A DNA stretch of 64,000 nucleotides from an uncultured Candidatus Saccharibacteria bacterium (lineage in GTDB: Bacteria; Patescibacteriota; CALEFQ01). The stretch covers positions 289,184 to 353,183 of the forward strand of contig OZ246404.1 in the NCBI GenBank assembly GCA_965230955.1, written 5' to 3'. The notes under the pieces were generated by a model that made no database searches, had not been told where the DNA came from, and saw only the letters and a list, made by a program, of their open reading frames with translations. Numbering within the stretch: position 1 is the stretch's first letter; every line of letters begins with the position of its first letter. Of this stretch, positions 6,462 to 48,434 are shown piece by piece. Both the position numbers and the translations under genes were made by a program.

Positions 6462-9140
6462 GTGATCTTATTCATGTATATGAAAGCACCCTCTTTTTTT
6501 AGGCTCAAACAACCGATTGAGCTAGGCTCGGTATTCTTGGCTGTATTGGTAACTTTGTTTTTGGTTAATAATAGCCTAAATGTTCAGGCGCAATTGCCCC
6601 AGGACTTGAATCTTGCCCAACCGGCCGATAAGGCCATTGGTGGTCAAGACGACGGTCGGGCCGATGCGCTTTTTATATTTTCAGCCGAAAGTGATACTCA
6701 GATGCGGACGACAATTGATCAGATTGAACAACAAAACGGCACGGTGACTAATCGTTTTCCGCCAAAAATCGCTTGGGGAAAATTGCCGCGCGACCAGGCC
6801 GGTCAAGTCGATCAGTTGCCGGGAGTCGAGGCGGTTCGTTTCGAGCAGGTCGATCCCTCTGATTTCGGTATTATCGATCCAGCTTCTATGGCCGGAATAA
6901 ATTCATGGAACGCTCATTTTGTGGCGGCGCCGGTGAAACCGGATAGCGGCCAGCCTTTAGTCAAAGATGATCTCGCTCCCGCGCCGAACTTGGATGGTCG
7001 CGCGGCAAAATTGGCTGGTATGGCTCAGCCCGATGCCCGGCAAGCCCGGTCCAATGATGCCTATCGGGCTCCGAACGGTGCCGGGTTTTATGATACGACG
7101 GAATACATGGCCGGCAATATTTCGGTGGCGGTGATTTTGCCCGAGAGTACCGGGGCCATTGACGCACAGACTGAATCCTGGGATTTGGCGCGCGAATCAG
7201 CCGTGGCGACTGAAGTCCAAAACGGCGTCAATTGGTGGTACAATCGAGAGCCGGCGGCGCAGATGTCTTTTACCTATCATTTTTATTACGGACGGACCGA
7301 TAGCCGGGCGCGCACCAGTTATGAGCCGATCACGCGAGCGGCTGATCCGTACGGCGAAAACGGCGAAAACTTATGGGTCAGTGAGATTATGCATAATTTC
7401 GGATATAGCGATTCGCAACGGCTGGACAAAGTCCGTCACTTCAACAACGATATGCGCGAATCGGACGGCTCGGATTGGGCGGTAACGTATTTTGTGGCGG
7501 ACAGTCTCAATGACGGCAATGGCGCTTTTGCCGATAACTATTTTGCCTACATGTGGATCGGCGGGCCGTATTCGGTCATGACTTATGACAACGACGGCTA
7601 CAGCATTTCAAATATGGACGCGGTCACGGCTCATGAATTTGGCCACGCTTTCTATGCCAACGATCAATATTCTTCGGCGTGTTCTTGCGACGAGCACCGC
7701 GGGTATTTGGATTATTATAATTATAACTGTGAAAATTCTTGCCCGCATAATGTTTATAGTATTATGCGCGGCCAGATATATCCTTATTCGGTCGGAGCGG
7801 TCGATATGTACGCCCGGGGGCAACTCGGAATCATCGATACTGAGCGTAATGGAATATTAGATGTGCTGGAAACGGCCCCGGATATTGAAATAGGCGAAGT
7901 GGAAGGGGGAATCGGCACGACCCATCCCACCATGACCGGCAGTACTTCGGTCACAAAAGTGGAAAACAAAAATCCTTACGGTCTGGGGAACGATATCACG
8001 GTGGCTAAAATTTCTACCGTTCAATGCCGGGCGGACGACGGCGAATGGGAAGAGGGCGAGGCGAACGATGGCGGTTTTAATGAAACGTCCGAAGATTTTT
8101 CTTGTTCACTGAATATTTCTCGCGGACGGCATACGATCGAGGTACGTTCCCGGGATAACTATAACAATTACAGCGAGACGAAAAAAATCACCCTTTCTTC
8201 CGGCGAGGCGCGGATTATTACTGTCCCTGGCAACGGCGGCGGACCGCAAGTGCGGGAGTTTTCTACCGCCGGCAAGACTCAACCGGAAAGTTTTTTTGCC
8301 TTTCCTTCTTATACTCGCAACGGCGCTCGGGTCAGTACCGGTGACGTCGATAAAGACGGAGGCGTGGAAATCGTAGCCGGTAGCGGGATCGGCGCCCAGC
8401 CGCACGTGGTGGTTTATGAAAAAAACGGTTCCAAGCGCGGCATCGATTATCGTCCCTTTGCTTCTTCTTTCCGAGGCGGAGTTGATGTGGCCAGCGGCGA
8501 TGTCGACGGTGACGGCAAAGATGAAATTGTCACCAGTCAGTTTACTCAGGGGCATCAAGTAAAAGTTTACCGCTATAATTCCAGCCGACAGATATTGGCG
8601 ACTTTTTCTCCTTTTGGGAAAATCACGGCGGGAGTGACGGTGGCGACCGGCGATGTTGATGAAGACGGGGTTAAGGAAGTAATTTGCGGCGCCAGTGTCG
8701 GGGGCGGGCCGCACATCCGGGTTTATGATATGAAAAACGGCCAGGCGGTCCTGAAATCAAATAGTTTCTTCGCTTTTCATAAAGATTCGCGTACTGGAGT
8801 TGATGTGTCCAGTGGCGATGTTAATGCCGACGGCGTTGATGAAATCGTGGTCAGCCAGCTTTATAACGGCGAGGCTTGGATGAAAGTCTATCAGTATAAT
8901 TCCGCTCGCACCGTTCTTGGTTCCTGGCGAGCTTTTCCGGCGGGCGTGGAGTGCGGCGCCAACGTGGAGATGATGGATGTTGATGGCGACGGACGCAGTG
9001 AAATACTGGTGGGACCGAATACCGGCGGCGGGCCGCAGGTGCGAGCCTTCGAGTACAATGGGACAGCCAAGAGTTTAAATTTCTTCGCTTATAGCAAAAG
9101 TTTCCGCGGCGGCGTCGTGCCGACGGGGGGATACTTCTAA
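6462..9140 (+). CDS. Secreted zinc metalloprotease (HEFGH zincin, M6/M64-like) with C-terminal FG-GAP beta-propeller repeats
   Basis: Signal peptide, then HExxH motif VTAHEFGHAFYANDQY. Repeated [ST]GDVDxDGxxEIV units (TGDVDKDGGVEIVAGSG, SGDVDGDGKDEIVTSQ, TGDVDEDGVKEVICGAS and others) are typical FG-GAP. Confidence 0.65.
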   Translation: MILFMYMKAPSFFRLKQPIELGSVFLAVLVTLFLVNNSLNVQAQLPQDLNLAQPADKAIGGQDDGRADALFIFSAESDTQMRTTIDQIEQQNGTVTNRFPPKIAWGKLPRDQAGQVDQLPGVEAVRFEQVDPSDFGIIDPASMAGINSWNAHFVAAPVKPDSGQPLVKDDLAPAPNLDGRAAKLAGMAQPDARQARSNDAYRAPNGAGFYDTTEYMAGNISVAVILPESTGAIDAQTESWDLARESAVATEVQNGVNWWYNREPAAQMSFTYHFYYGRTDSRARTSYEPITRAADPYGENGENLWVSEIMHNFGYSDSQRLDKVRHFNNDMRESDGSDWAVTYFVADSLNDGNGAFADNYFAYMWIGGPYSVMTYDNDGYSISNMDAVTAHEFGHAFYANDQYSSACSCDEHRGYLDYYNYNCENSCPHNVYSIMRGQIYPYSVGAVDMYARGQLGIIDTERNGILDVLETAPDIEIGEVEGGIGTTHPTMTGSTSVTKVENKNPYGLGNDITVAKISTVQCRADDGEWEEGEANDGGFNETSEDFSCSLNISRGRHTIEVRSRDNYNNYSETKKITLSSGEARIITVPGNGGGPQVREFSTAGKTQPESFFAFPSYTRNGARVSTGDVDKDGGVEIVAGSGIGAQPHVVVYEKNGSKRGIDYRPFASSFRGGVDVASGDVDGDGKDEIVTSQFTQGHQVKVYRYNSSRQILATFSPFGKITAGVTVATGDVDEDGVKEVICGASVGGGPHIRVYDMKNGQAVLKSNSFFAFHKDSRTGVDVSSGDVNADGVDEIVVSQLYNGEAWMKVYQYNSARTVLGSWRAFPAGVECGANVEMMDVDGDGRSEILVGPNTGGGPQVRAFEYNGTAKSLNFFAYSKSFRGGVVPTGGYF

Positions 9141-19150: not shown

Positions 19151-19220
19151 GGGTCTTTAGTCTTTGGTCTTTTGACATTTAATATCCGGCTAAAGACTAA
19201 AGACCAACGACTAAAGACCA
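19151..19220. repeat. Heptamer (GGTCTTT/AGTCTTT) palindromic element immediately upstream of dinB
   Basis: GGTCTTTAGTCTTTGGTCTTTTGAC-loop-CTAAAGACTAAAGACCAACGACTAAAGACC. Confidence 0.6.
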
Positions 19221-24976: not shown

Positions 24977-26281
24977 ATGCCTGTTCTGAAACGAACAATT
25001 GAAAAGGTCTTGAAATTCTATGCCCGGGCTGTCATTAAACGACGGCAGCCTTTAGTTGTGGGCGTGACAGGCAGTATAGGTAAGACCAGCACGAAAGAGG
25101 CGATCGCGTTGGTGCTGGCCAGCCGTTGGTCCGTGCGCCAGAGTCAGAAAAATTATAATAATGAATTGGGCGTGCCGCTGACCATTTTGGGACTGGATAC
25201 GGGCGGTCGAAGCGCGGGAGCCTGGTTAAGGATACTCACGGTCGGATTTTTCCGGGCCTTGTTTGGTACCGGCAAATATCCCCAGGTCTTAGTCCTGGAA
25301 TTGGGGATCGATCGTCCGGGCGATATGGATCCGCTGCTGTTTATGTCGAAGCCGGCGATCGGCGTCATCACTACCATTGGTCCCACCCATTTGGAATTTT
25401 TCGATAGCATCAATGAAATCGCCAAGGAAAAAGGCAAACTGGTGCGCTCTCTGAATCACGGCGGTTTCGCGGTGCTGAATTTTGACGATCAGCGCGTCAG
25501 TGATTTGGCCAATACCGTTACGGCGGAAGTATTGACTTATGGATTTCAAAAAGGAGCGGCGGTTCGCGGCTTAGTTACTCCGGCTGGCATGAGTTTGGAT
25601 AGCGACCATTGGCTGGATAGCCCGGCGAGCGGAAGAACGGGTTTGAGCCTAAAAATTTCCTACCGCGGCAATATTGTGCCCGTCCGTCTGCCGTCGGTCG
25701 GGTTGCCTCAGGCCTACGCGGCTCTGGCAGCGGCGGCGGTGGGTTTGTCTCAGAAGATGAATTTGATTGAAATCGCCAATGCTTTGCACCGATGTTGTTC
25801 TTTGCCCGGACGTATGAATCTGATAGAAGGAATAAAGAAAACACTGATTGTGGATGATTCATATAATTCAGCCCCGGTTTCAGCCATTTCCGCGCTGTCT
25901 TATCTCCAGAGCATGAAAGGCAGCGGGCGCAAAATCGCGGTTTTGGGCGATATGCTGGAATTGGGAATTTATACCGAAGAGGGACATCGCGAGGTGGGGA
26001 CGCGCGCGGCCGAGGCGGTTGATATTTTGGTGACTGTCGGTCGACGAGCGAAATTCATGGCTGAGGCGGCTCGCACGGCCGGGATCTCCATGGCGAAGGA
26101 ATTTGACAGTTATCAGGAAGTCGGTAAATACTTAGAAAGTATTTTGCATCCCTATGACATGGTGTTAATCAAGGCGTCGCAGGGAATTCGTCTGGAAAAA
26201 GTGGTAAAAGAGATTATGGCTCGACCCCAAGACGCGGAAAAATTGTTGGTCCGGCAGGGGAAGAGATGGCAGGAAATATAG
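24977..26281 (+). CDS. murF: UDP-N-acetylmuramoyl-tripeptide--D-alanyl-D-alanine ligase
   Basis: Mur ligase P-loop GVTGSIGKTSTKE and MurF-type NYNNELGVPLT. Confidence 0.75.
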   Translation: MPVLKRTIEKVLKFYARAVIKRRQPLVVGVTGSIGKTSTKEAIALVLASRWSVRQSQKNYNNELGVPLTILGLDTGGRSAGAWLRILTVGFFRALFGTGKYPQVLVLELGIDRPGDMDPLLFMSKPAIGVITTIGPTHLEFFDSINEIAKEKGKLVRSLNHGGFAVLNFDDQRVSDLANTVTAEVLTYGFQKGAAVRGLVTPAGMSLDSDHWLDSPASGRTGLSLKISYRGNIVPVRLPSVGLPQAYAALAAAAVGLSQKMNLIEIANALHRCCSLPGRMNLIEGIKKTLIVDDSYNSAPVSAISALSYLQSMKGSGRKIAVLGDMLELGIYTEEGHREVGTRAAEAVDILVTVGRRAKFMAEAARTAGISMAKEFDSYQEVGKYLESILHPYDMVLIKASQGIRLEKVVKEIMARPQDAEKLLVRQGKRWQEI

Positions 26282-26287
26282 TCGCTG

Positions 26288-26333
26288 GTCATTAGTCGTT
26301 AGTCTTTAGCCAACGACTAATGACTAAAGACTA
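26288..26333. repeat. Palindrome GTCATTAGTCG-N15-CGACTAATGAC with AGTCTTTAG repeats (murF terminator region)
   Basis: Perfect 11-bp stem; same heptamer family as at 19151 and 30034. Confidence 0.55.
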
Positions 26334-26339
26334 TTTTAT

Positions 26340-26415
26340 GGCGCCATCGTCTAGTGGTCTAGGACACTGCCCTCTCACGGCAGGAACCTGGGTTCAAATC
26401 CCAGTGGCGCTACCA
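26340..26415 (+). tRNA. tRNA-Glu (anticodon CTC)
   Basis: Cloverleaf GGCGCCA-TC-GTCTAGTGGTCTAGGAC-A-CTGCC-CTCTCAC-GGCAG-..-CTGGGTTCAAATCCCAG-TGGCGCT-A-CCA. Confidence 0.85.
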
Positions 26416-26497
26416 ACGAATTTTGCTTCTCTTGGGAAGCAAAAAAGACAGTAAAAGATGATAAATCGCATAAATAAGTAAAATTAGCTGTGGATAT

Positions 26498-26998
26498 ATG
26501 ACAATTAAGAAAAAAGTACAATATATTGAGGGCTTAATTTCTGGTTGTCAGCGGAATGATTGCCAGGATACTTGTTGTGATGACGATCAGGTGGAAGAAT
26601 GGGTAAATGAATATTTTGCATTTCACGAAAGAATGAAAGATCATTTGACGTCACTAGGGATAAAGATTGAGTTCATTGGAGATAGAGTCCGTTTTAAAAA
26701 CTGCACAGATGGCAAAAGATGTAAACTCTTAAAACACTCTCTAAACAAAGATGTTGATCCGCGCCCCATCGATTGCAAAATATTTCCTTTTGTCGTGGAT
26801 TGGGATTCGATAGACTTTGATAGGAAAATAGTAGATTTATATTATTGGGATGATTCTTGTCCCTTGGTTAAGGAAAATAAAATTCCTGGTGATTTTCTGA
26901 AAGAAGTAGAGAATATAATAAAGCGGGACTTTGCTGTGCTATTTTACGGAGCGAGGTTTGCAGTCAGATTTAAAGATAAACCGACTGCCACAGCCTGA
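26498..26998 (+). CDS. Cys-rich hypothetical protein, possibly YkgJ/UPF0153-like (CxxCxxCC-type metal-binding)
   Basis: N-terminal GCQRNDCQDTCCDDD plus additional conserved Cys; lies in the low-GC islet. Confidence 0.35.
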   Translation: MTIKKKVQYIEGLISGCQRNDCQDTCCDDDQVEEWVNEYFAFHERMKDHLTSLGIKIEFIGDRVRFKNCTDGKRCKLLKHSLNKDVDPRPIDCKIFPFVVDWDSIDFDRKIVDLYYWDDSCPLVKENKIPGDFLKEVENIIKRDFAVLFYGARFAVRFKDKPTATA

Positions 26999-27142
26999 TT
27001 ATCTGTGAAGGATGGGAATATGGAAATCACCATCCAATTCCCTGGAAAAGGTTCCGATTATGTCTACTGTGGCCTACCAAGTTACTTTCTTTTGGTTGGA
27101 ATTAAATTACCAGGCCAAATCACGAAAAAATAATAGCCATTT

Positions 27143-27397
27143 ATGGAACTTATAGACATAGTGGGTTATTGCGCCGGAATTCTGGTTGTCATATCCTTAC
27201 TTCCGCAGACGATTAAAAGTTGGCGGACAAAATCAACAAAAGATTTATCTTATTGGAGATATATTATTTATGTCGTTGGGTTGGTCTTATGGATTACATA
27301 TGCAATCATAATTCATAACGGACCTGTGGCGGTAATGAATAGTGCCGGGTTGGTTCTTGCTGTTTCGATTCTTATGCTCAAGATAAAATACGGATAA
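27143..27397 (+). CDS. SemiSWEET (PQ-loop, 3-TM sugar transporter)
   Basis: 84 aa, three TM helices, PQ motif LLPQTIKSWRTKSTKDLS; low-GC islet. Confidence 0.6.
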   Translation: MELIDIVGYCAGILVVISLLPQTIKSWRTKSTKDLSYWRYIIYVVGLVLWITYAIIIHNGPVAVMNSAGLVLAVSILMLKIKYG

Positions 27398-27489
27398 TTC
27401 ATTTTGTCACATTATCTTGTTCCTGAGTAACGTCTGTGTAACAAGTTTTTGAACTATTTCGGCCTCAAGAATATTTAAATATCAAATTT

Positions 27490-27735
27490 ATGGTCATGGA
27501 ACTTAAGGGTAACGAGCTATATAATCTAAAAGTCCCGGCCGGAAAACATACCTATTTTTTTGATGTTAGAAAATCAGAGAGCGGCAATTATATCGTGATT
27601 ACCGAGACGCGGCGGGATGGTAAAAAATTTATCCATGACAGAATAACGGTCTTCGACGACCAACTTGATAATTTTGTCAAAGGCTTGGAGGAGGTAAAGA
27701 AATTTCTCCGAGGGAAACAGATTAAATATAGCTAG
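27490..27735 (+). CDS. DUF3276/PUR-alpha-like small nucleic-acid-binding protein
   Basis: 81 aa; KTYFFDVRKSESGNYIVITETRRDGKKFIHDRITVFDDQLDNF resembles bacterial Pur-alpha repeat proteins. Confidence 0.4.
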   Translation: MVMELKGNELYNLKVPAGKHTYFFDVRKSESGNYIVITETRRDGKKFIHDRITVFDDQLDNFVKGLEEVKKFLRGKQIKYS

Positions 27736-27871
27736 AACGCAATTTCTATAACTTCTTTGGTTGAAAAAGATTGAATCGTTTTGGGGTTTATTCTGAAATT
27801 CAATCGAATAGTTTTTGAGAAATCGTGGTTGATAGGTAGAAGCCATTTAAGCGCCTAAAGCGTTTTTTATT

Positions 27872-28954
27872 ATGTCGGATAATTTACCGGGACTTACTCA
27901 AATTTTGAAACAGATGTTTCGGCTATGGAGCCGAACCGGCTGGTCCGCCAAATGGCGGCTGGTCGTTTTGGGCTGGCATTTAAAACAAACGGAAAAACGG
28001 CGCCGTCAGCTCTGGCTGGAAAAAAAGCTTTTGGTCCCGATGGGTCTGGGTTTAAGCCCGACGATGAAATGCGATCTGGCTTGCCAAGGTTGTTACGCGC
28101 GTAACTATCCCCGTGGTCGGGAATTACCTCTGGCGGTTTGGAATCGGTTTCTCGGACAAGCCGTGGACTCCGGTGTTTTTTTCTTCGTGGTGACCGGGGG
28201 AGAGCCGCTCGAGCGTCCGGAGATTTTAAATTTGTTCGAAAATTATCCTTCGGCCTTGTTTTTACTGGTGACCAATGGCTTGAAAATAGATGAAACACTG
28301 GCATGCCGCCTGGCGCGTTTGGGGAATGTTATGCCGATGGTGAGTGTCGAGGGGTTTGAACCGGAGACTGATCAGCGCCGCGGGAAAGGAATGTATCGCA
28401 ATATCTTGAAGACATTGGAAATACTCAAGAAACAAAAAATATTGTTTGGGTTTTCCGCCACGGTGACCAAAAATAATGCGGCTGTTTTGGGGAGTGACCG
28501 ATTCATTGACGAAATGATTGACCGGGGCTGCACGGCCGGCTTCTATAATGATCTCATTCCCGTCCAAGCGGAAGATTTTTCTCTGCTTCCCGATAAATCC
28601 GCGGCGGAAAATTTCCGGTGGAACCTGAAAAATTGGCGTCAGCGGAAGCCGATTCTTTTGGTTCATTTACCGGATGATGAATATGATGAACAGGGCTTTT
28701 GCCGAGCGGTCCGTAGCGGAGCGATGCACGTCAATGCCCAAGGATTTGTTGAGCCTTGTCCTTTTGCCCATGTGGCACGGGAGAATATCAGCGACTGCTC
28801 TTTTGAACAGATTCTCGGCTCTCCTTTTTTGACGGCGATTCGTCAGCATCCGACAATGCTCAAGCAGGGCGATGTCGGTTGCGCGCTGGTGAGCAATCGA
28901 GCTGAACTGAATCTGCTGATGAAAAAACATCAGGCTCAGCCGACCGAGAAGTAA
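27872..28954 (+). CDS. Radical SAM protein with a C-terminal Cys cluster (SPASM/twitch-like)
   Basis: CxxxCxxC CDLACQGCY, glycine-rich VVTGGEPL, and C-terminal Cys in CRAVRSG...EPCPF...DCSF. Confidence 0.6.
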   Translation: MSDNLPGLTQILKQMFRLWSRTGWSAKWRLVVLGWHLKQTEKRRRQLWLEKKLLVPMGLGLSPTMKCDLACQGCYARNYPRGRELPLAVWNRFLGQAVDSGVFFFVVTGGEPLERPEILNLFENYPSALFLLVTNGLKIDETLACRLARLGNVMPMVSVEGFEPETDQRRGKGMYRNILKTLEILKKQKILFGFSATVTKNNAAVLGSDRFIDEMIDRGCTAGFYNDLIPVQAEDFSLLPDKSAAENFRWNLKNWRQRKPILLVHLPDDEYDEQGFCRAVRSGAMHVNAQGFVEPCPFAHVARENISDCSFEQILGSPFLTAIRQHPTMLKQGDVGCALVSNRAELNLLMKKHQAQPTEK

Positions 28955-29000
28955 AATTTTGCTAAATCGGCCGGATTTGATATATACTAGCTATTGTCTT

Positions 29001-30035
29001 ATGAATAAATTACTACTGATTGTAATTGTCTGTTTGATTATCGGCATAGCCGTTGTTTGGTGGTGGGGACGCAGTCCTTCCCCGGCGGCTGATATTTTGG
29101 ACGTGGGGCAAGAGTTGGTGGCCGATAATCAGGATCAAAGCTTCAAAAAAGAACCGGCAGTGCCAATTGTTTCCAAGGAGCCGGTTACTCTGCTGGCGGT
29201 CGGCGATGTGATGCTTTCTCGGCATGTCTGGACCAAGATCAAAGAGCACGGGGGAGATCCGCGTTATCCTTTTGTGGAAACGGCTCAATTTACCAAATCC
29301 GCGGATATTACTTTTGGAAATGTGGAAACGGCGGTTTCCGATCTATCCGCTCCGCCGGCCGAAGGGATGAGTTTCATCACTCCGACCAAGGCGATTGAGG
29401 GTCTCAAATATGCCGGGTTTGATATCGTGTCGCTGGCGAATAATCACTCGCTCAATTTCGGACGTGAAGCCCTGCTGGATAGCGTCAATCAATTGGCCGA
29501 CCAGGGAATCAAGTCCGCCGGCGCCGGCGAAAACATCGAATCGGCGCACGCCCCGGCGATTTTGGAAGTGAAGGGAAACAAAATAGCGTTCTTGGCTTAT
29601 CAGAATGTCGGTCCGGAAGACGCCTGGGCCGCCACGGCGACCAAAACTGGTCTAGCGTGGATGAATATTCCACAACTGCAACAAGATATTAAGGCGATTC
29701 GCGACCAGGTCGATTATGTCATCGTTTCGATGCATGCCGGCACTGAGTATGTCTTTGACCCGATTGCTTCGCAAAAAGAATTTGCTCATGCGGCAGTTGA
29801 CTCCGGGGCCGATTTAGTCATCGGTCATCATCCTCATGTGATTCAGGACAAAGAGATCTACAAAGACAAACAGATTATTTATAGTCTGGGCAACTTTGTT
29901 TTCGACCAGATGTGGTCGGAAGAAACCCGATTGGGTGAAGTCATGACGGCCACTCTCGATAACGGGAAGATTGAGGATATTAATTTTAAAACAGTTAAAA
30001 TCTTTGATTATTGCCAGCCGAAGCTTATTGATTAG
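29001..30035 (+). CDS. CapA/PgsA-family metallophosphoesterase (poly-gamma-glutamate synthesis/capsule family)
   Basis: N-terminal TM, LLAVGDVMLSRH, GFDIVSLANNHS, MHAGTEY, GHHPHVIQ motifs. Confidence 0.65.
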   Translation: MNKLLLIVIVCLIIGIAVVWWWGRSPSPAADILDVGQELVADNQDQSFKKEPAVPIVSKEPVTLLAVGDVMLSRHVWTKIKEHGGDPRYPFVETAQFTKSADITFGNVETAVSDLSAPPAEGMSFITPTKAIEGLKYAGFDIVSLANNHSLNFGREALLDSVNQLADQGIKSAGAGENIESAHAPAILEVKGNKIAFLAYQNVGPEDAWAATATKTGLAWMNIPQLQQDIKAIRDQVDYVIVSMHAGTEYVFDPIASQKEFAHAAVDSGADLVIGHHPHVIQDKEIYKDKQIIYSLGNFVFDQMWSEETRLGEVMTATLDNGKIEDINFKTVKIFDYCQPKLID

Positions 30036-30100
30036 TCTTTGGTCTTTAGTCTTTAGCCATAAAAAAAAGGCCAAAGACCAAAGACTAGAGACCAAAGACC
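30034..30100. repeat. Heptamer (AGTCTTT/GGTCTTT) palindromic element between capA-like and trxA
   Basis: TAGTCTTTGGTCTTTAGTCTTTAGCC-ataaaaaaaa-GGCCAAAGACCAAAGACTAGAGACCAAAGACC. Confidence 0.6.
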
Positions 30101-30114
30101 TTAATCAAAACCCC

Positions 30115-30429
30115 ATGACCATTCTTACGAAGGACAACTTCGACCAAGAAGTACTTCAATCTAAAGTGCCCGTCTACGTCGATTTTTTCGCCACCTGGTG
30201 CGGCCCCTGCCGGGCTTTCGCGCCGATTTTTGAGGAATTCGCTCAGGAAATGGGCGATAAAATCAAAGCTTATAAATTTGATGTCGATTCCTCCCAGGAT
30301 TTGGCGGCTCGATATGAAGTTCAGACCATTCCGACTATCGTACTTTTTAAGCAAGGGAAGGTCGCCGAGAGAGTGATGGGCGTAAAATCGAAAGAAGAAC
30401 TGCGCGGTATGCTGGAGAAAGAGGAATAA
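30115..30429 (+). CDS. trxA: Thioredoxin
   Basis: WCGPC active site; 104 aa. Confidence 0.85.
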   Translation: MTILTKDNFDQEVLQSKVPVYVDFFATWCGPCRAFAPIFEEFAQEMGDKIKAYKFDVDSSQDLAARYEVQTIPTIVLFKQGKVAERVMGVKSKEELRGMLEKEE

Positions 30430-30572
30430 TTCCCGCTATTTTGCTTCGAATTTTATTTAAAAAGCGAGGTCGAAACTCGCTTTTTAATATAATTGATTAA
30501 TTGCCGGTATCGGGACGAATGTTTATGGGCCATAAAAAAACCACCAACGTGGAGGTTGGTGGTTTTTACTGA

Positions 30573-44435: not shown

Positions 44436-44533
44436 CTATTGCGCGCTCACTTCGTTCGCGCTTCGTAGAACAGGAACCGATAGATTAATGCGGGCCTGTC
44501 CTACGAAGCTCTCGCGAAGCGAGAGCGTAGTAG
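44436..44533. mobile_element. MITE-like inverted-repeat element (about 100 bp) inserted immediately 5' of tRNA-Ala(GGC); flanked by a duplicated tRNA 5' end (GGCCCTTAGaTCATC at 44421-44435 vs GGCCCTTAGcTCATC at 44535-44549)
   Basis: Terminal inverted repeats CGCTCACTTCGTTCGCGCTTCGTAGAACAGG / CCTGTCCTACGAAGCTCTCGCGAAGCGAGAGCG; direct repeat read from sequence. A paralogous element lies upstream of tRNA-Lys. Confidence 0.5.
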
Positions 44534-44609
44534 GGGCCCTTAGCTCATCTGGTAGAGCGTTCCCATGGCATGGGAGAGGTGACCGGTTCGAGTCCGGTAG
44601 GGTCCACCA
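44534..44609 (+). tRNA. tRNA-Ala (anticodon GGC)
   Basis: GGGCCCT-TA-GCTCATCTGGTAGAGC-G-TTCCC-ATGGCAT-GGGAG-..-ACCGGTTCGAGTCCGGT-AGGGTCC-A-CCA; G3:U70 Ala identity pair present. Confidence 0.85.
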
Positions 44610-44686
44610 TGTATCATTCTTGCGCATAGCAGAAATGCAATGCCGATTGTAAGAACCTTTGAGCTATTTGATAATTTCAAGAAATT

Positions 44687-45229
44687 ATGGCAATACGAAT
44701 AACTTATTTTGTTCACGGAACAACGACTGATAATGAAAAAAATGTTTCATCCGGTTGGTTTGATGTGGAACTTTCAAAGCTCGGTGTCAAGCAGTCAATT
44801 GAGCTGAAAGATAAGATCAAGGATAAAAAATTTGATATTGTCTTTTGTTCTGACTTGAAGAGGGCGGTCGACTCGGCAAAGCTTACCTTTGAGGGACAAG
44901 TCCCAATTTTGCAAGAGAAGAGATTGCGGGAATGCAATTATGGCAAGTATAATGCTCAGCCATCTGAGATCGTTGAACCAATGCAGGAAAAAAGCATTTT
45001 CGAAAGATTTCCCGAAGGTGAAAGCTATGAAGATGTGAAATTGAGAATTGCTGATTTTCTAGAGTTTCTGAAAAAAAACTATGACGGGAAATCGGTTGCG
45101 ATCGTAGCCCACAAGGCACCACAACTCGCATTAGATGTTTTGCTGAAAAAGAAGACTTGGGAACAAGCTTTCGCAGAAGATTGGCGTAAACGAAAAGCTT
45201 GGCAGCCTGGCTGGGAGTATAATATCTAG
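44687..45229 (+). CDS. Histidine phosphatase superfamily protein (phosphoglycerate mutase-like)
   Basis: N-terminal ITYFVHGTTTDNE (RHG-like) and overall branch-1 layout. Confidence 0.5.
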   Translation: MAIRITYFVHGTTTDNEKNVSSGWFDVELSKLGVKQSIELKDKIKDKKFDIVFCSDLKRAVDSAKLTFEGQVPILQEKRLRECNYGKYNAQPSEIVEPMQEKSIFERFPEGESYEDVKLRIADFLEFLKKNYDGKSVAIVAHKAPQLALDVLLKKKTWEQAFAEDWRKRKAWQPGWEYNI

Positions 45230-45342
45230 AGCGTGATGTTTTCTATCGGGAAATATATAGTTATGTTAATTGAATAGTAGGAATTTGTGTTTCCTTGCCG
45301 GTGTCCATGAAAAAAGTTCGAACATCCTCCGCTAGGGACCAC

Positions 45343-45390
45343 CAGCCCCACACTCAAGTTTTTTTCAAAAAAAACTTGAGTGTGGGGCTG
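45343..45390. repeat. Perfect palindrome of the CCCCACACTCA family (copy 2)
   Basis: CAGCCCCACACTCAAGTTTTTTT-C-AAAAAAAACTTGAGTGTGGGGCTG. Confidence 0.6.
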
Positions 45391-45519
45391 GAAAACCAAA
45401 GTTCAAAGCTTAAAATTCAAAGGAAATTTAAAATACAAACTTCAAGTGGTTTTGAATTTTGAGTTTTGCACTTTAGATTTTCAGTCCGTCTTGGGCGGAC
45501 TGTCCATGGGCACATAGCT

Positions 45520-45622
45520 TCCTCTCTCGCGCTTACTTCGTTCGCGCTTCGTAGAACAGGCTGCTGGCAATCAACCAGCAACGGGCCTGCCCTACGAAGC
45601 TCTCGCGAAGCGAGAGCGTAGT
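45520..45622. mobile_element. Second MITE-like inverted-repeat element inserted immediately 5' of tRNA-Lys; flanked by a 12-nt direct repeat of the tRNA 5' end (GGGCACATAGCT at 45508-45519 and 45623-45634)
   Basis: TIRs CGCTTACTTCGTTCGCGCTTCGTAGAACAGG / CCTGCCCTACGAAGCTCTCGCGAAGCGAGAGCG; the right end is identical to the copy at 44496-44533. Confidence 0.5.
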
Positions 45623-45698
45623 AGGGCACATAGCTCAGTCGGTAGAGCAGCTCCCTTTTAAGGAGAAGGTCGCAGGTTCGATTCCTGCTGTGCCCACC
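45623..45698 (+). tRNA. tRNA-Lys (anticodon TTT)
   Basis: GGGCACA-TA-GCTCAGTCGGTAGAGC-A-GCTCC-CTTTTAA-GGAGA-AGGTC-GCAGGTTCGATTCCTGC-TGTGCCC-A-CCA. Confidence 0.85.
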
Positions 45699-45864
45699 AC
45701 GCCACATCCCGGCCAGAGCCGGGAGTGGAAATCTAAAGCTTAAAGTTTAAAATTCAAAGGAAATTCAAAAACCAAAGTCTAAAACCGATTTCATATTTAA
45801 ATTTTGATCTTCCTTTGAATTTTTTTCTTTAAACCTTGGACTTTCACCGACGGGCGGTTACCCC

Positions 45865-45940
45865 GGGCCCATAGCTCAGTTGGTAGAGCGCGCCCTTCGC
45901 ATGGGCGAGGTCAGCGGTTCAAATCCGCTTGGGTCCACCA
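45865..45940 (+). tRNA. tRNA-Ala (anticodon CGC)
   Basis: GGGCCCA-TA-GCTCAGTTGGTAGAGC-G-CGCCC-TTCGCAT-GGGCG-AGGTC-AGCGGTTCAAATCCGCT-TGGGTCC-A-CCA; G3:U70 present. Confidence 0.85.
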
Positions 45941-45988
45941 AACCGCGCGCCTGGAGTTTAGGCGAGGTCAGCGGTTACCAGAGATCCA

Positions 45989-46411
45989 ATGAACTTTCCG
46001 GAACCAAAAAATGATCGTATGGGAAAAAAGGTTAACAGGTATATTTTTTGGGCACCGAGAATATTTACTATAGTATTTATCGCGTTTTTGGCGATGTTTT
46101 CATTGGATGTTTTTGGAAATAATTATAGCTTGGGTGAACTGACATTAGGACTGTTCATGCATAATATACCGGGATTGATCTTGATAGTAATTTTGTTGAT
46201 TTCTTGGAAATATGAAATAGTCGGTGCCATCACTTTTATTCTGCTTGGCATCGTGTACATTGCCATGATTACTGTTGGTCGTACTGACATTGACCAGTCG
46301 TCGGTATTTCAAATATTGATTAATTCCTTAGTTATTTCCGGGCTGGCATTTCTTATTGGAATTCTGTTTTTCTTGGGCTGGAAGCAAAAGAAGAACTTGA
46401 CTGTAAGGTGA
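45989..46411 (+). CDS. Small integral membrane protein, function unknown
   Basis: Four TM helices; start uncertain. Confidence 0.35.
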   Translation: MNFPEPKNDRMGKKVNRYIFWAPRIFTIVFIAFLAMFSLDVFGNNYSLGELTLGLFMHNIPGLILIVILLISWKYEIVGAITFILLGIVYIAMITVGRTDIDQSSVFQILINSLVISGLAFLIGILFFLGWKQKKNLTVR

Positions 46412-46444
46412 TTTCAAATTTTAAAAACCAATCGAATTCGTTGT

Positions 46445-46861
46445 ATGGGTGATATCAAAAAAATCGGATTATTGGTACTAAATGCTTCGGGTGATAAATT
46501 TTTGGTTTGCGAAAAAGACAAAAAAGACGTCACCTCTGATTACTTGATGCCGGGCGGACAATTGGAAGAACAGGGCGATCTCGCTTGCTTGCGTCGTGAG
46601 ATCAGGGAAGAATTAAACTGTGCTATCAATTTTGATACCGTGCAATATCTGGGTTTGTATGAAGATATTGCCGCCGGATTTACTGATCGGCTGGTGAAAA
46701 TAAAACTATACAGCGGAGAACTGATTGGCCAGCCGGTGGCTTCTTCGGAAATCAAATACTTGCATTGGATTGGCCGATCAGATGCTGAAAACCAGCGGGT
46801 GTCGCCGATTATCAGGAAAAAGATTATTCCGGATCTGATAAAGAGAGATATCCTAAAATAG
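46445..46861 (+). CDS. NUDIX hydrolase
   Basis: Nudix box GGQLEEQGDLACLRREIREELN. Confidence 0.65.
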   Translation: MGDIKKIGLLVLNASGDKFLVCEKDKKDVTSDYLMPGGQLEEQGDLACLRREIREELNCAINFDTVQYLGLYEDIAAGFTDRLVKIKLYSGELIGQPVASSEIKYLHWIGRSDAENQRVSPIIRKKIIPDLIKRDILK

Positions 46862-46917
46862 CCGGATATCTTGTTTTTTCTGGGACTACAGAGGATAAAA
46901 TTCACATCTAAATTTTA

Positions 46918-46994
46918 GGGCGCATAGCTCAGTTGGTTAGAGCGCACGCTTCACACGCGTGAGGTCTCAGGTTCGAATCCTGATGCGCCCACCA
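46918..46994 (+). tRNA. tRNA-Val (anticodon CAC)
   Basis: GGGCGCA-TA-GCTCAGTTGGTTAGAGC-G-CACGC-TTCACAC-GCGTG-AGGTC-TCAGGTTCGAATCCTGA-TGCGCCC-A-CCA. Confidence 0.85.
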
Positions 46995-47080
46995 GTAAGT
47001 TTGTTATAGCCTCAACGGCTTTTTATTTTTCTTTAGAATAGTGGTAAACTTTAAGGGGTGAGATATTTCATGCTTTTTAT

Positions 47081-47884
47081 ATGAAAACTGATTATAAAAA
47101 ATTTGCTGAAAATTTAGCACGCCAGTCAGGAAAGATTATCAGGAAAAATTTTAGTTTGGGAATGGAAAAAAAATGGAAAAAAGATATCACGCCGGTAACG
47201 GTCACAGATTTAGCTGTCAATAAATTGGTTTTGGATGCGGTAGTCAAAAATTTTCCGGATCATAGCGTGATTGCTGAAGAGGGAAGCTATTTGGTCCCAG
47301 GGAGTAATTATGCCTGGGTTTGTGACCCGGTCGATGGCACTATCCCTTTTTCGCATGGAGTGCCAACTGGCATTTTCTTGCTTGCTTTGGTCAAGTCGGG
47401 AGAACCTATTCTCGGTATTGCTTATGATCCTTTTCTCGATCGGGTATTTTTGGCGGAGAAAGGGCGAGGCGCCACGCTAAATGGTCAACCGATTAGGGTA
47501 AATAAGGAAAAACAACTTCAGGGACAATCGGTCGTGGGTCTAGTGCACTGGGGATTAAAGAATGATCCAATGGAAAAGGCTTTTATCGAGATGAATGATC
47601 GCTGGGGTTTTATTCAAATGTGCCTGTGCTCTATTGGTTACATGACTGTGTTGGTTGCTGGCGGAGAATTTACGGCGGCTATTTTCCAGGGCCGGCATCC
47701 ATGGGATGCGGCTGCCATGAAATTGCTAGTCGAGGAAGCTGGGGGTAAAGTCACTAATATTTTTGGAGAAGAGCAGCGCTATGATCGAGATACGCTGGGA
47801 TTTATTGCCAGCAACGGTCTCGTCCATGGTGAATTGGTGCGATTAATTAAGAAATATGTTAAGCCGGCCGATCTCCCGAAATAA
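47081..47884 (+). CDS. Inositol monophosphatase family protein (IMPase/SuhB-like)
   Basis: Motifs AEEG, WVCDPVDGT and WDAAAM. Confidence 0.75.
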   Translation: MKTDYKKFAENLARQSGKIIRKNFSLGMEKKWKKDITPVTVTDLAVNKLVLDAVVKNFPDHSVIAEEGSYLVPGSNYAWVCDPVDGTIPFSHGVPTGIFLLALVKSGEPILGIAYDPFLDRVFLAEKGRGATLNGQPIRVNKEKQLQGQSVVGLVHWGLKNDPMEKAFIEMNDRWGFIQMCLCSIGYMTVLVAGGEFTAAIFQGRHPWDAAAMKLLVEEAGGKVTNIFGEEQRYDRDTLGFIASNGLVHGELVRLIKKYVKPADLPK

Positions 47885-48434
47885 ATTTGCCTCCCGCGCG
47901 GGAGAAAAACTCGATTTTGCCATGGCGCATTTCAAAATTGACGTCCGGGGTTTAGTTTGCGCCGATCTGGGATCGGATCGTGGCGGTTTCACGGACTGCT
48001 TGTTGCAACGCGGAGCAAAAAAAGTTTACGCGGTGGAGCGCGGTTATGGCCTGCTGGAGTGGAAACTGCGCCAAGATTCGCGCGTAGCGGCGCTGGAGAG
48101 GACGAATGCTTTACATGTGAAATTGCCGGAGCCGGTTGATTTTATCTCAATTGATGTCGGCTGGACGCAACAAAAGATGATTATTCCGAAAGCGCTGGAA
48201 TTGCTAAAACCGCAGGGCCGGATAGTGTCACTGCTAAAACCTCAATATGAGGTCGAAAAGAAGTTTCTGCGCGAGGGGAAAGTTTTGGCGGAAAAACTAC
48301 CGGAAGTAATCAGCGGGGTCAAGCAAGCTTTGACGGCCTTGCCAAATTGCCGAATTATCGGTTGCGTCGAATCGCCTTTGGTCGGGAAAAGCGGGGGAAA
48401 TGTCGAGTACTTATTTTTTTTGGCGAAAAAATAA
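47856..48434 (+). CDS. TlyA/FtsJ-like rRNA 2'-O-methyltransferase (no S4 domain)
   Basis: SRAGEKLDFAMAHF...VCADLGSDRGGFTDCLLQRGAKKVYAVE closely matches the TlyA methyltransferase core. Overlaps the previous gene by 29 nt in another frame. Confidence 0.6.
   Translation: MLSRPISRNKFASRAGEKLDFAMAHFKIDVRGLVCADLGSDRGGFTDCLLQRGAKKVYAVERGYGLLEWKLRQDSRVAALERTNALHVKLPEPVDFISIDVGWTQQKMIIPKALELLKPQGRIVSLLKPQYEVEKKFLREGKVLAEKLPEVISGVKQALTALPNCRIIGCVESPLVGKSGGNVEYLFFLAKK

Follow-up and report, generated by a model that had tools for sequence, protein, structure and literature searches.

Evidence for recent exchange of a single-gene cassette within a composite AT-rich stretch beside tRNA-Glu in an uncultured Candidatus Saccharibacteria bacterium

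Gene exchange has been reported among Patescibacteria and between Patescibacteria and DPANN archaea (PMC12455944), SemiSWEET transporters have been noted in metagenome-assembled genomes (MAGs) of DPANN (PMC10936187), and DPANN families whose function is unknown are stated to be detected in bacteria only in small number (PMC8204110). Here we describe a locus that resembles these cases, an AT-rich stretch of about 1.4 kb (positions 26416-27870) directly 3' of a tRNA-Glu(CTC) gene in an uncultured Candidatus Saccharibacteria bacterium. It lies in a window of 64,000 nucleotides of contig OZ246404.1 and carries three small genes, coding for a 166-amino-acid (aa) protein with eight conserved cysteines (the 8-Cys protein), a SemiSWEET and a DUF3276 protein. 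We consider it likely that the stretch is a composite and not a single island, with one gene transferred, one probably transferred, and one resident.

As in the reported exchange between Patescibacteria and DPANN, the genes in question are small, often membrane-associated and highly similar across domains (PMC12455944, PMC8204110); the difference is that the 8-Cys family is one of unknown function, a class of which few examples are said to exist (PMC8204110). Genomic islands next to tRNA genes provide the other obvious comparison. The locus shares with them an anomalous composition, a variable presence among relatives and a boundary exactly at the tRNA 3' end, but it lacks both an integrase and a direct repeat of the tRNA end, its exchanged DNA starts after the CCA and not inside the tRNA, and it consists of separate single-gene units of ~0.4-0.6 kb. 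Taken as a feature of the genome, it is nothing out of the ordinary, a small region of variable content next to a tRNA.

The GC content of 26416-27870 is 0.362, lower than in any other 1455-bp window across the 64 kb (mean 0.475, standard deviation 0.029; z = -3.9), the next-lowest non-overlapping one reaching 0.397 near 45.7 kb. In 300-bp windows GC is 0.49-0.57 over murF, drops to 0.35-0.40 from ~26350 to ~27850 and is back to 0.50 at the radical SAM gene downstream, a course that agrees with the drop and return described in an initial annotation of this DNA. About 31% of the stretch is non-coding, at a GC of 0.33, and the stretch overall falls below the mean of the intergenic spacers elsewhere in the window (0.393). 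All three open reading frames (ORFs) exist as that annotation had listed them and rank among the lowest in GC of the 62 putative genes of the window. Measured against the GC at third codon positions (GC3) of these 62 genes (mean 0.53, standard deviation 0.056), the 8-Cys gene (26498-26998, + strand; GC 0.367, GC3 0.33, z = -3.6) and the SemiSWEET gene (27143-27397, +; GC 0.376, GC3 0.38, z = -2.7) deviate, and the DUF3276 gene (27490-27735, +; GC 0.394, GC3 0.46, z = -1.15) deviates little. An assembly chimera is ruled out, since related sequencing runs (SRR10083287-SRR10083310), assembled independently, show the same gene order in at least six cases.

The best matches of MurF among 185,579 species genomes were the locus L004 (81% identity), a 'Patescibacteria group bacterium' (44%) and a Falkowbacteria MAG (41%), which places the DNA in a genome of the Patescibacteria (CPR). 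A metagenome scan with MurF for closer relatives returned one new locus at 61%, all others being at or below 48%. The relatives used for comparison were L004, L015 and L029, whose MurF is 81%, 64% and 61% identical to that of the window. Against L004, blastn homology is continuous up to 26415, the last base of tRNA-Glu(CTC), and picks up again at 27474, 16 bp 5' of the DUF3276 start codon, from where it spans the radical SAM, PGA_cap and thioredoxin region (27474-30431, corresponding to L004 11900-14870). The homologous segments are 72.7-80.6% identical in DNA; the radical SAM protein is 74% identical to its L004 copy, and the radical SAM and PGA_cap genes give tblastn matches in L004. Between the two breakpoints the window has 1058 bp, with the 8-Cys and SemiSWEET genes, and L004 has 2445 bp of unrelated DNA. 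This slot, 26416-27473, is the sole part of the AT-rich stretch that varies among relatives. In L015 the tRNA is followed by the 8-Cys gene and then by aminotransferase, DUF218 and SDR genes, with no SemiSWEET, DUF3276 or radical SAM gene, and in L029 by an unrelated ORF for a secreted Cys-rich protein of 183 aa. The content of the locus thus differs from relative to relative, with the exception of the DUF3276 gene, which is shared with L004.

The slot of L004 (9455-11899) holds three ORFs (255, 103 and 123 aa), none of which has a match in Pfam, PADLOC or PHROGs, and is itself a mosaic: the part with the 255-aa ORF has a GC of 0.55-0.60, above the backbone, and the part with the 123-aa ORF one of 0.36-0.39.

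The portion of the slot that the window has in common with L015 is a single-gene cassette (26419..27056, +) that opens with a hairpin (26421-26444) and an AT-rich leader, continues with the 8-Cys gene and has another hairpin downstream of it (27010-27035). Near-identity begins ~4 nt past the CCA end of tRNA-Glu, persists for ~58 nt beyond the 8-Cys stop codon, to ~27056, and then vanishes. Within these limits identity is 91% over the 82 bp that separate the tRNA from the gene, and the gene itself reaches ~93% in DNA and 92% in protein, with an identity of 0.84 at fourfold degenerate sites. The adjoining tRNA-Glu is only 72% identical between the two genomes, with compensatory changes in the anticodon stem, and the backbone is diverged throughout (58-76% in protein, 64-73% in DNA, and a saturated 0.26-0.49 at fourfold third positions). 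L004, a closer relative than L015, has no 8-Cys gene, and vertical inheritance followed by loss in L004 does not explain a cassette far less diverged than the tRNA beside it. When the 8-Cys genes of other hosts are compared, the coding region alone can be aligned (71-73% DNA identity), with nothing in common between the flanks; that window and L015 have similar flanks is therefore a sign of recency and not of function. Taken together, these comparisons point clearly to a recent horizontal exchange of a single gene between diverged Patescibacteria. The case is unusually clean and resolved to the base, with a cassette of ~93% DNA identity standing next to a tRNA of 72%. Because it is bounded by hairpins, the unit looks like a self-contained transcription unit. 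Directly 3' of the shared cassette, L015 has a GC-rich palindromic element (8560-8640; GCCTGCCTACCGGCCACGCCCCGCC...GGCAGGCAGG) that is missing from the window.

The distribution of the 8-Cys family extends across two domains. A search of 5.8 billion sequences with the 8-Cys protein returned 124 matches at 56-94% identity, none of them with a Pfam domain, and an exhaustive hidden Markov model (HMM) search of 1.84 billion cluster representatives returned only 24 proteins at E <= 1e-3, so that the family is small and tight. The named sources are Patescibacteria (Buchananbacteria, Moranbacteria and Parcubacteria, including the loci L017 and L122) and archaea. The archaeal contigs are genuine, for they carry L21e, TFIIB together with S8e (on a contig of 1.19 Mb), or ZPR1 together with an archaeal-type ProRS. 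In a neighbour-joining tree, computed without support values, three archaeon-labelled members fall into three separate clades among the others. Seven distinct gene neighbourhoods of the family have no partner gene in common. Bacterial and archaeal copies of the families shared between the domains, the 8-Cys family among them, are 62-82% identical.

The second gene of the slot encodes an 84-aa protein with three transmembrane (TM) helices, P21-Q22, W50 and N66, and its identification as a SemiSWEET by the initial annotation holds: PF04193 (40.9 bits, cut-off 22; 1.8e-10) and PF03083 (38 bits, cut-off 23.7) match above their cut-offs, and NCBIfam NF037968 (SemiSWEET_2) falls 0.5 bit short of its own (79.5 against 80). 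Residues 2-84 align without gaps to 4RNG (4.6e-14) and to 9KAX, 4QNC and 4X5M (down to 2.1e-9). The protein thus has the single triple-helix bundle and the PQ motif in TM1 seen in the solved SemiSWEETs of Leptospira biflexa (4QNC), Thermodesulfovibrio yellowstonii (4RNG) and E. coli (4X5M), and its W50 and N66 fall, in the alignment, on W48 and N64 of 4QNC, residues that reportedly line the pocket in the structure of the Leptospira protein. What sets it apart from the solved proteins is its membership of a tight subgroup (73-83% identity) that runs across Patescibacteria and DPANN archaea.

A sequence search with the SemiSWEET gave 239 matches at 71-100% identity in the two domains, with relatives in Kerfeld-, Falkow-, Magasanik- and Komeilibacteria and in Aenigm-, Nano- and Micrarchaeota; the remark that SemiSWEETs are rare in bacteria does not apply in this setting. 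An 82% identical copy adjoins archaeal PolB and FEN1 in 24 contigs, further copies adjoin STT3/AglB or RadA, and the copy of a Kerfeldbacteria MAG lies among unrelated genes. The archaeal proteins P0228 (a SemiSWEET) and P0066 (an 8-Cys protein) were considered as a co-located pair, and this was rejected, their genes being on separate contigs of 9806 bp each. At the locus itself, the remainder of the slot with the SemiSWEET gene (27057..27473, +) has no counterpart in L004, L015 or L029, in none of which a SemiSWEET follows tRNA-Glu. The gene was probably acquired horizontally, to judge from its absence at this site in three relatives, its GC3 of 0.38 and its identity across domains, which is far above the identity of MurF to other Patescibacteria (35-48%).

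A different history applies to the third gene. The DUF3276 gene is, by its synteny, a resident, lineage-specific gene of the backbone, since it is collinear with the radical SAM and PGA_cap genes in L004 and the breakpoint lies 16 bp 5' of its start. Its product is 89% identical to the L004 copy, in both genomes it stands directly 5' of the radical SAM/SPASM gene, and its homologues among the 5.8 billion sequences are confined to the L004-type cluster. The L004 DNA around it has a GC of 0.36-0.38. The AT-rich dip is therefore larger than the variable segment, and low GC by itself does not mark the foreign part: one third of the dip is resident backbone, and dip and foreign insert are not the same thing. 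From the DUF3276 gene onward the low GC would be intrinsic, a matter of a small protein rich in Lys, Asn, Ile, Phe and Tyr and of long AT-rich spacers. The syntenic segment (27474..27871, +) comprises the gene and the intergenic region downstream, with a terminator-like hairpin at 27849-27865 found in a terminator scan. Only ~16-20 bp 5' of the start are conserved with L004, so either the promoter must lie in variable DNA or the gene is served by read-through from upstream.

Several observations weigh against the composite reading and have to be set beside it. Only three reasonably close relatives could be compared. The 8-Cys and SemiSWEET genes lie below host GC in every genome examined (for SemiSWEET, in 4/4 other genomes checked), so that their deficit is partly intrinsic. 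The case for a foreign SemiSWEET is indirect, consisting of absence at the site in three relatives and of codon usage. Neither mobility gene nor att repeat nor target duplication accompanies the slot, which leaves the mechanism of insertion without support. Finally, a raised fourfold identity is found in the resident DUF3276 gene as well: between 27490-27735 and L004 11916-12161 the codon identity is 0.76 and the fourfold identity 0.72 (n = 18), against 0.41-0.51 in neighbouring genes, whose fourfold identity is 0.41-0.47; this means that small conserved genes can inflate the measure. Synonymous identity is thus not decisive for small genes, and the argument for the 8-Cys cassette rests mainly on its non-coding flanks beside a diverged tRNA.

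An alternative is a reading without any transfer, in which the region is ancestral and intrinsically AT-rich, its genes were differentially lost, and the 8-Cys gene has been under extreme purifying selection. The GC deficit of the 8-Cys and SemiSWEET genes in all their hosts would suit it, as would the AT-richness of the DUF3276 segment in both the window and L004, the large non-coding share of the stretch, the generally low GC of spacers, and the high synonymous identity of the resident gene. Selection on a protein, however, cannot preserve its non-coding flanks, to which the flanks in other hosts bear no relation, and between the window and L015 the leader (91%) and the fourfold sites (0.84) of the 8-Cys unit far exceed the tRNA (72%) and the fourfold sites of the backbone (0.26-0.49). 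Vertical descent also fits poorly with an identity of 62-82% between bacterial and archaeal copies and with archaeal members scattered over the tree. We regard this reading as improbable, although it is the best placed of the alternatives.

Less probable still is the view, close to that of the initial annotation, that the 1.4 kb arrived as a whole by horizontal acquisition, all three genes included, and was integrated at tRNA-Glu as a single islet. The stretch does look uniform, with a GC of 0.358-0.365 in each of its three sub-parts, it adjoins a tRNA, and the three genes are missing after murF and tRNA-Glu in more distant Patescibacteria loci. Yet the synteny of the DUF3276 gene with the radical SAM and PGA_cap genes in L004 places it outside any such insert, L015 has just the 8-Cys cassette, similarity stopping at ~27056, and the DUF3276 protein has no homologues across lineages, unlike the 8-Cys and SemiSWEET proteins; integrase and att repeat are also wanting. 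What stands of the proposed horizontal acquisition is therefore the 8-Cys gene, for which the evidence is direct, and probably the SemiSWEET gene; the DUF3276 gene and the notion of a single islet do not belong to it.

The remark that no integrase or flanking direct repeat is visible was borne out. None of the genes running from mraZ through dnaK has an integrase or recombinase domain, the 3' end of the tRNA is not repeated within 25800-29200, and a search for direct and inverted repeats around the stretch gave short chance matches only, with no att site, terminal inverted repeat or target duplication. The tRNA would accordingly not have served as an integration site of the att type, the exchanged DNA starting after the CCA. 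It is very unlikely that the 8-Cys cassette targets tRNA 3' ends, be it as a mobile or selfish element of minimal size or as a piece of a hotspot for phages or defence genes: it does sit ~4 nt past the CCA of tRNA-Glu in two diverged genomes, between hairpins and in a slot of variable content as in defence islands, but five other genomes have the gene in unrelated contexts and flanks away from tRNAs, none of 2.9 million viral contigs scanned with the 8-Cys alignment carries a relative, PADLOC gives no match and PHROG only insignificant ones, so that no defence or phage signal attaches to the gene, and terminal inverted repeats and duplications are absent.

The direction and mechanism of transfer we infer from these patterns. 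Under the composite reading, the site 3' of tRNA-Glu(CTC), at the end of the mraZ-murF block, would be a slot that each lineage fills differently and that, at 26416-27473, would hold two independent, self-contained single-gene units, the ~640-bp 8-Cys cassette and the SemiSWEET gene. The cassette may have been exchanged recently with a distantly related Patescibacterium, or drawn by both from the same donor pool, and the 8-Cys and SemiSWEET families would be tight families circulating among ultra-small Patescibacteria and DPANN archaea. Insertion would have been independent of an integrase, perhaps by DNA uptake followed by illegitimate or microhomology-mediated recombination beside the tRNA; the most economical account would be that small pieces of DNA were inserted where an operon block ends and leaves a permissive slot.

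The 8-Cys protein (26498..26998, +) is an orphan with the cluster C17-x4-C22-x3-C26-C27 and further cysteines at C69, C75, C93 and C121. Divergent members of the family (20-32% identity) retain all eight cysteines together with R89 and P97, and a core subfamily additionally retains E38, H43, D62, R63, K76, D87, D92, K94 and D101. The initial annotation had called the protein YkgJ-like and noted its CxxxxCxxxCC cluster. The cluster is there, and there is a likeness at the level of motifs to the YkgJ or CxxCxxCC family (PF03692; COG0727, 'Fe-S-cluster containing protein'): both are small proteins with eight conserved cysteines and an N-terminal cluster ending in CC, and the 8-Cys protein has an R-P-x-x-C-K-x-Y-P motif resembling R-P-x-x-C-[KR]-x-[FY]-P, which we take to be typical of the YkgJ family. 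Three members bear the JGI label 'Fe-S-cluster containing protein'. The signature itself is different, an invariant C-x4-C-x3-CC and not C-x2-C-x2-CC. PF03692 matches neither the window protein (E <= 0.1) nor 39 members (E <= 10) nor 10 divergent members (E <= 1) of the family, with E. coli YkgJ as positive control matching at 2.4e-11, and hhalign of two 8-Cys alignments against E. coli YkgJ gives probabilities of 0.2% (A2) and 0.4% (A5). By profile, alignment and signature spacing, the YkgJ identity was rejected.

No Pfam or NCBIfam family matches the 8-Cys protein either, and a profile search of PDB sequences was empty. An AlphaFold2 model built from an alignment is of good quality by its predicted local distance difference test (pLDDT 88.5) and predicted template modelling (pTM 0.83) scores, and Foldseek with this model finds in PDB a best E of 0.2 with template modelling (TM) scores <= 0.28, and in PDB and BFVD together nothing better than E 0.02 or a TM score of 0.29. 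The conserved residues suggest two Cys4 metal sites, for Zn or Fe-S, and a conserved charged surface, and the invariant Arg together with the acidic residues suggests that the protein may be an enzyme, a nucleic-acid-binding protein or a redox protein. The SemiSWEET, for its part, would dimerise and act as a uniporter through which an auxotrophic symbiont takes up sugar.

The assignment of the third protein to DUF3276 was sound. PF11680 matches residues 8-75 of its 81 aa with 35.2 bits (cut-off 23.1; 1.5e-8), and the protein may correspond to a single PUR repeat. It differs from the family in its small size, covering positions 10-83 of the 131-position model, and in being lineage-specific and conserved directly 5' of a radical SAM/SPASM gene. 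Co-linear but weak sequence-only similarity extends to the PUR-like structures of Borrelia burgdorferi (3NM7, E 0.005; 3N8B, 0.034) and to the repeats of Pur-alpha (E ~0.9), and PF04845 reaches E 0.026, below its cut-off. By analogy, the protein might dimerise and bind single-stranded nucleic acid. The spacer downstream of the gene has diverged from L004 despite the high synonymous identity of the gene itself, an identity that could stem from selection acting directly on the sequence of the mRNA or the DNA, or else from gene conversion as a separate event. This spacer (27736-27871) folds into a long hairpin (-33.8 kcal/mol, z = -2.9 against shuffled sequence) that is poorly conserved in L004 and has no Rfam match.

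The stretch is framed by conserved backbone. On its 5' side lie dinB, mraZ, rsmH, a small ftsL-like ORF, a penicillin-binding protein (PBP) gene and murF (24977..26281, +; Mur_ligase_M and Mur_ligase_C matches), the last of which closes the conserved mraZ-rsmH-ftsL-PBP-murF block and forms the left flank, followed by tRNA-Glu(CTC) (26340..26415, +), identified by ARAGORN and by Rfam RF00005 with 62.7 bits. At a permissive threshold this tRNA is the sole Rfam match in 26200-28000, and no riboswitch is found 5' of the SemiSWEET gene. Of the 75 murF loci of Patescibacteria whose downstream sequence was long enough, 30 have a tRNA-Glu(CTC) within 1.5 kb 3' of murF, some of them with a MurF identity as low as 37%; this deeply conserved adjacency makes the tRNA an old landmark that closes the division and cell-wall block. 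None of the more distant murF loci has any of the three small genes or the radical SAM gene nearby. The right flank is the radical SAM/SPASM gene (27872..28954, +), after which come the genes for the PGA_cap protein and thioredoxin, and then hrcA, grpE and dnaK. Within 27872-30429 the radical SAM/SPASM protein has peptide maturases as its best NCBIfam matches, all far below cut-off, and the PGA_cap protein partially matches the lasso-peptide Trp epimerase MslH (5.9e-25); with the thioredoxin gene next to them, these genes could form a peptide-modification cluster.

An imperfect palindrome with TAGTCTT/TGGTCTT-like heptads (26275..26337; inverted repeats I1 and I7) separates murF from the tRNA. 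It belongs to a family of heptad hairpins (for example GATTAGTCTTTGGTCTTTAGTCTTTAGCC...GGCCAAAGACCAAAGACTAGAGACC) found at 19190-19218, 26275-26337 and 30035-30100 of the window and at 2326-2394 and 9312-9369 of L004, with four matches where 0.01 are expected by chance; these elements, common to the window and L004, may be REP-like or may act as terminators. Elsewhere in the window, the second AT-rich stretch (44500-47900), that of the next-lowest GC (0.397), has tRNAs Ala-GGC, Lys-TTT, Ala-CGC and Val-CAC interspersed with small accessory genes of low GC3 (His_Phos_1, DUF7670, NUDIX and inositol monophosphatase-family), and may be another tRNA-flanked variable slot. Long ORFs are nearly all on the + strand over 1-64000, GC skew is positive almost throughout, and its cumulative curve climbs monotonically from ~2 kb, which fits a single replichore with a strong gene-strand bias.

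We found no paper on the 8-Cys family, in literature that was not searched specifically for it. It is possible, though we advance it tentatively, that the 8-Cys proteins constitute an undescribed metal-binding fold family, nearly confined to Patescibacteria and DPANN, that has moved repeatedly and recently as a recombinase-free cassette of ~640 bp, at least twice to the site 3' of tRNA-Glu. If so, the family would mark a shared 'episymbiont toolkit' kept by inter-domain gene flow, perhaps serving as one of its effectors, and the co-resident SemiSWEET subgroup would have the same part in it. Since families of unknown function common to both groups are reported to be few (PMC8204110), structural and biochemical studies of what these episymbionts have in common could reasonably take up the 8-Cys family.

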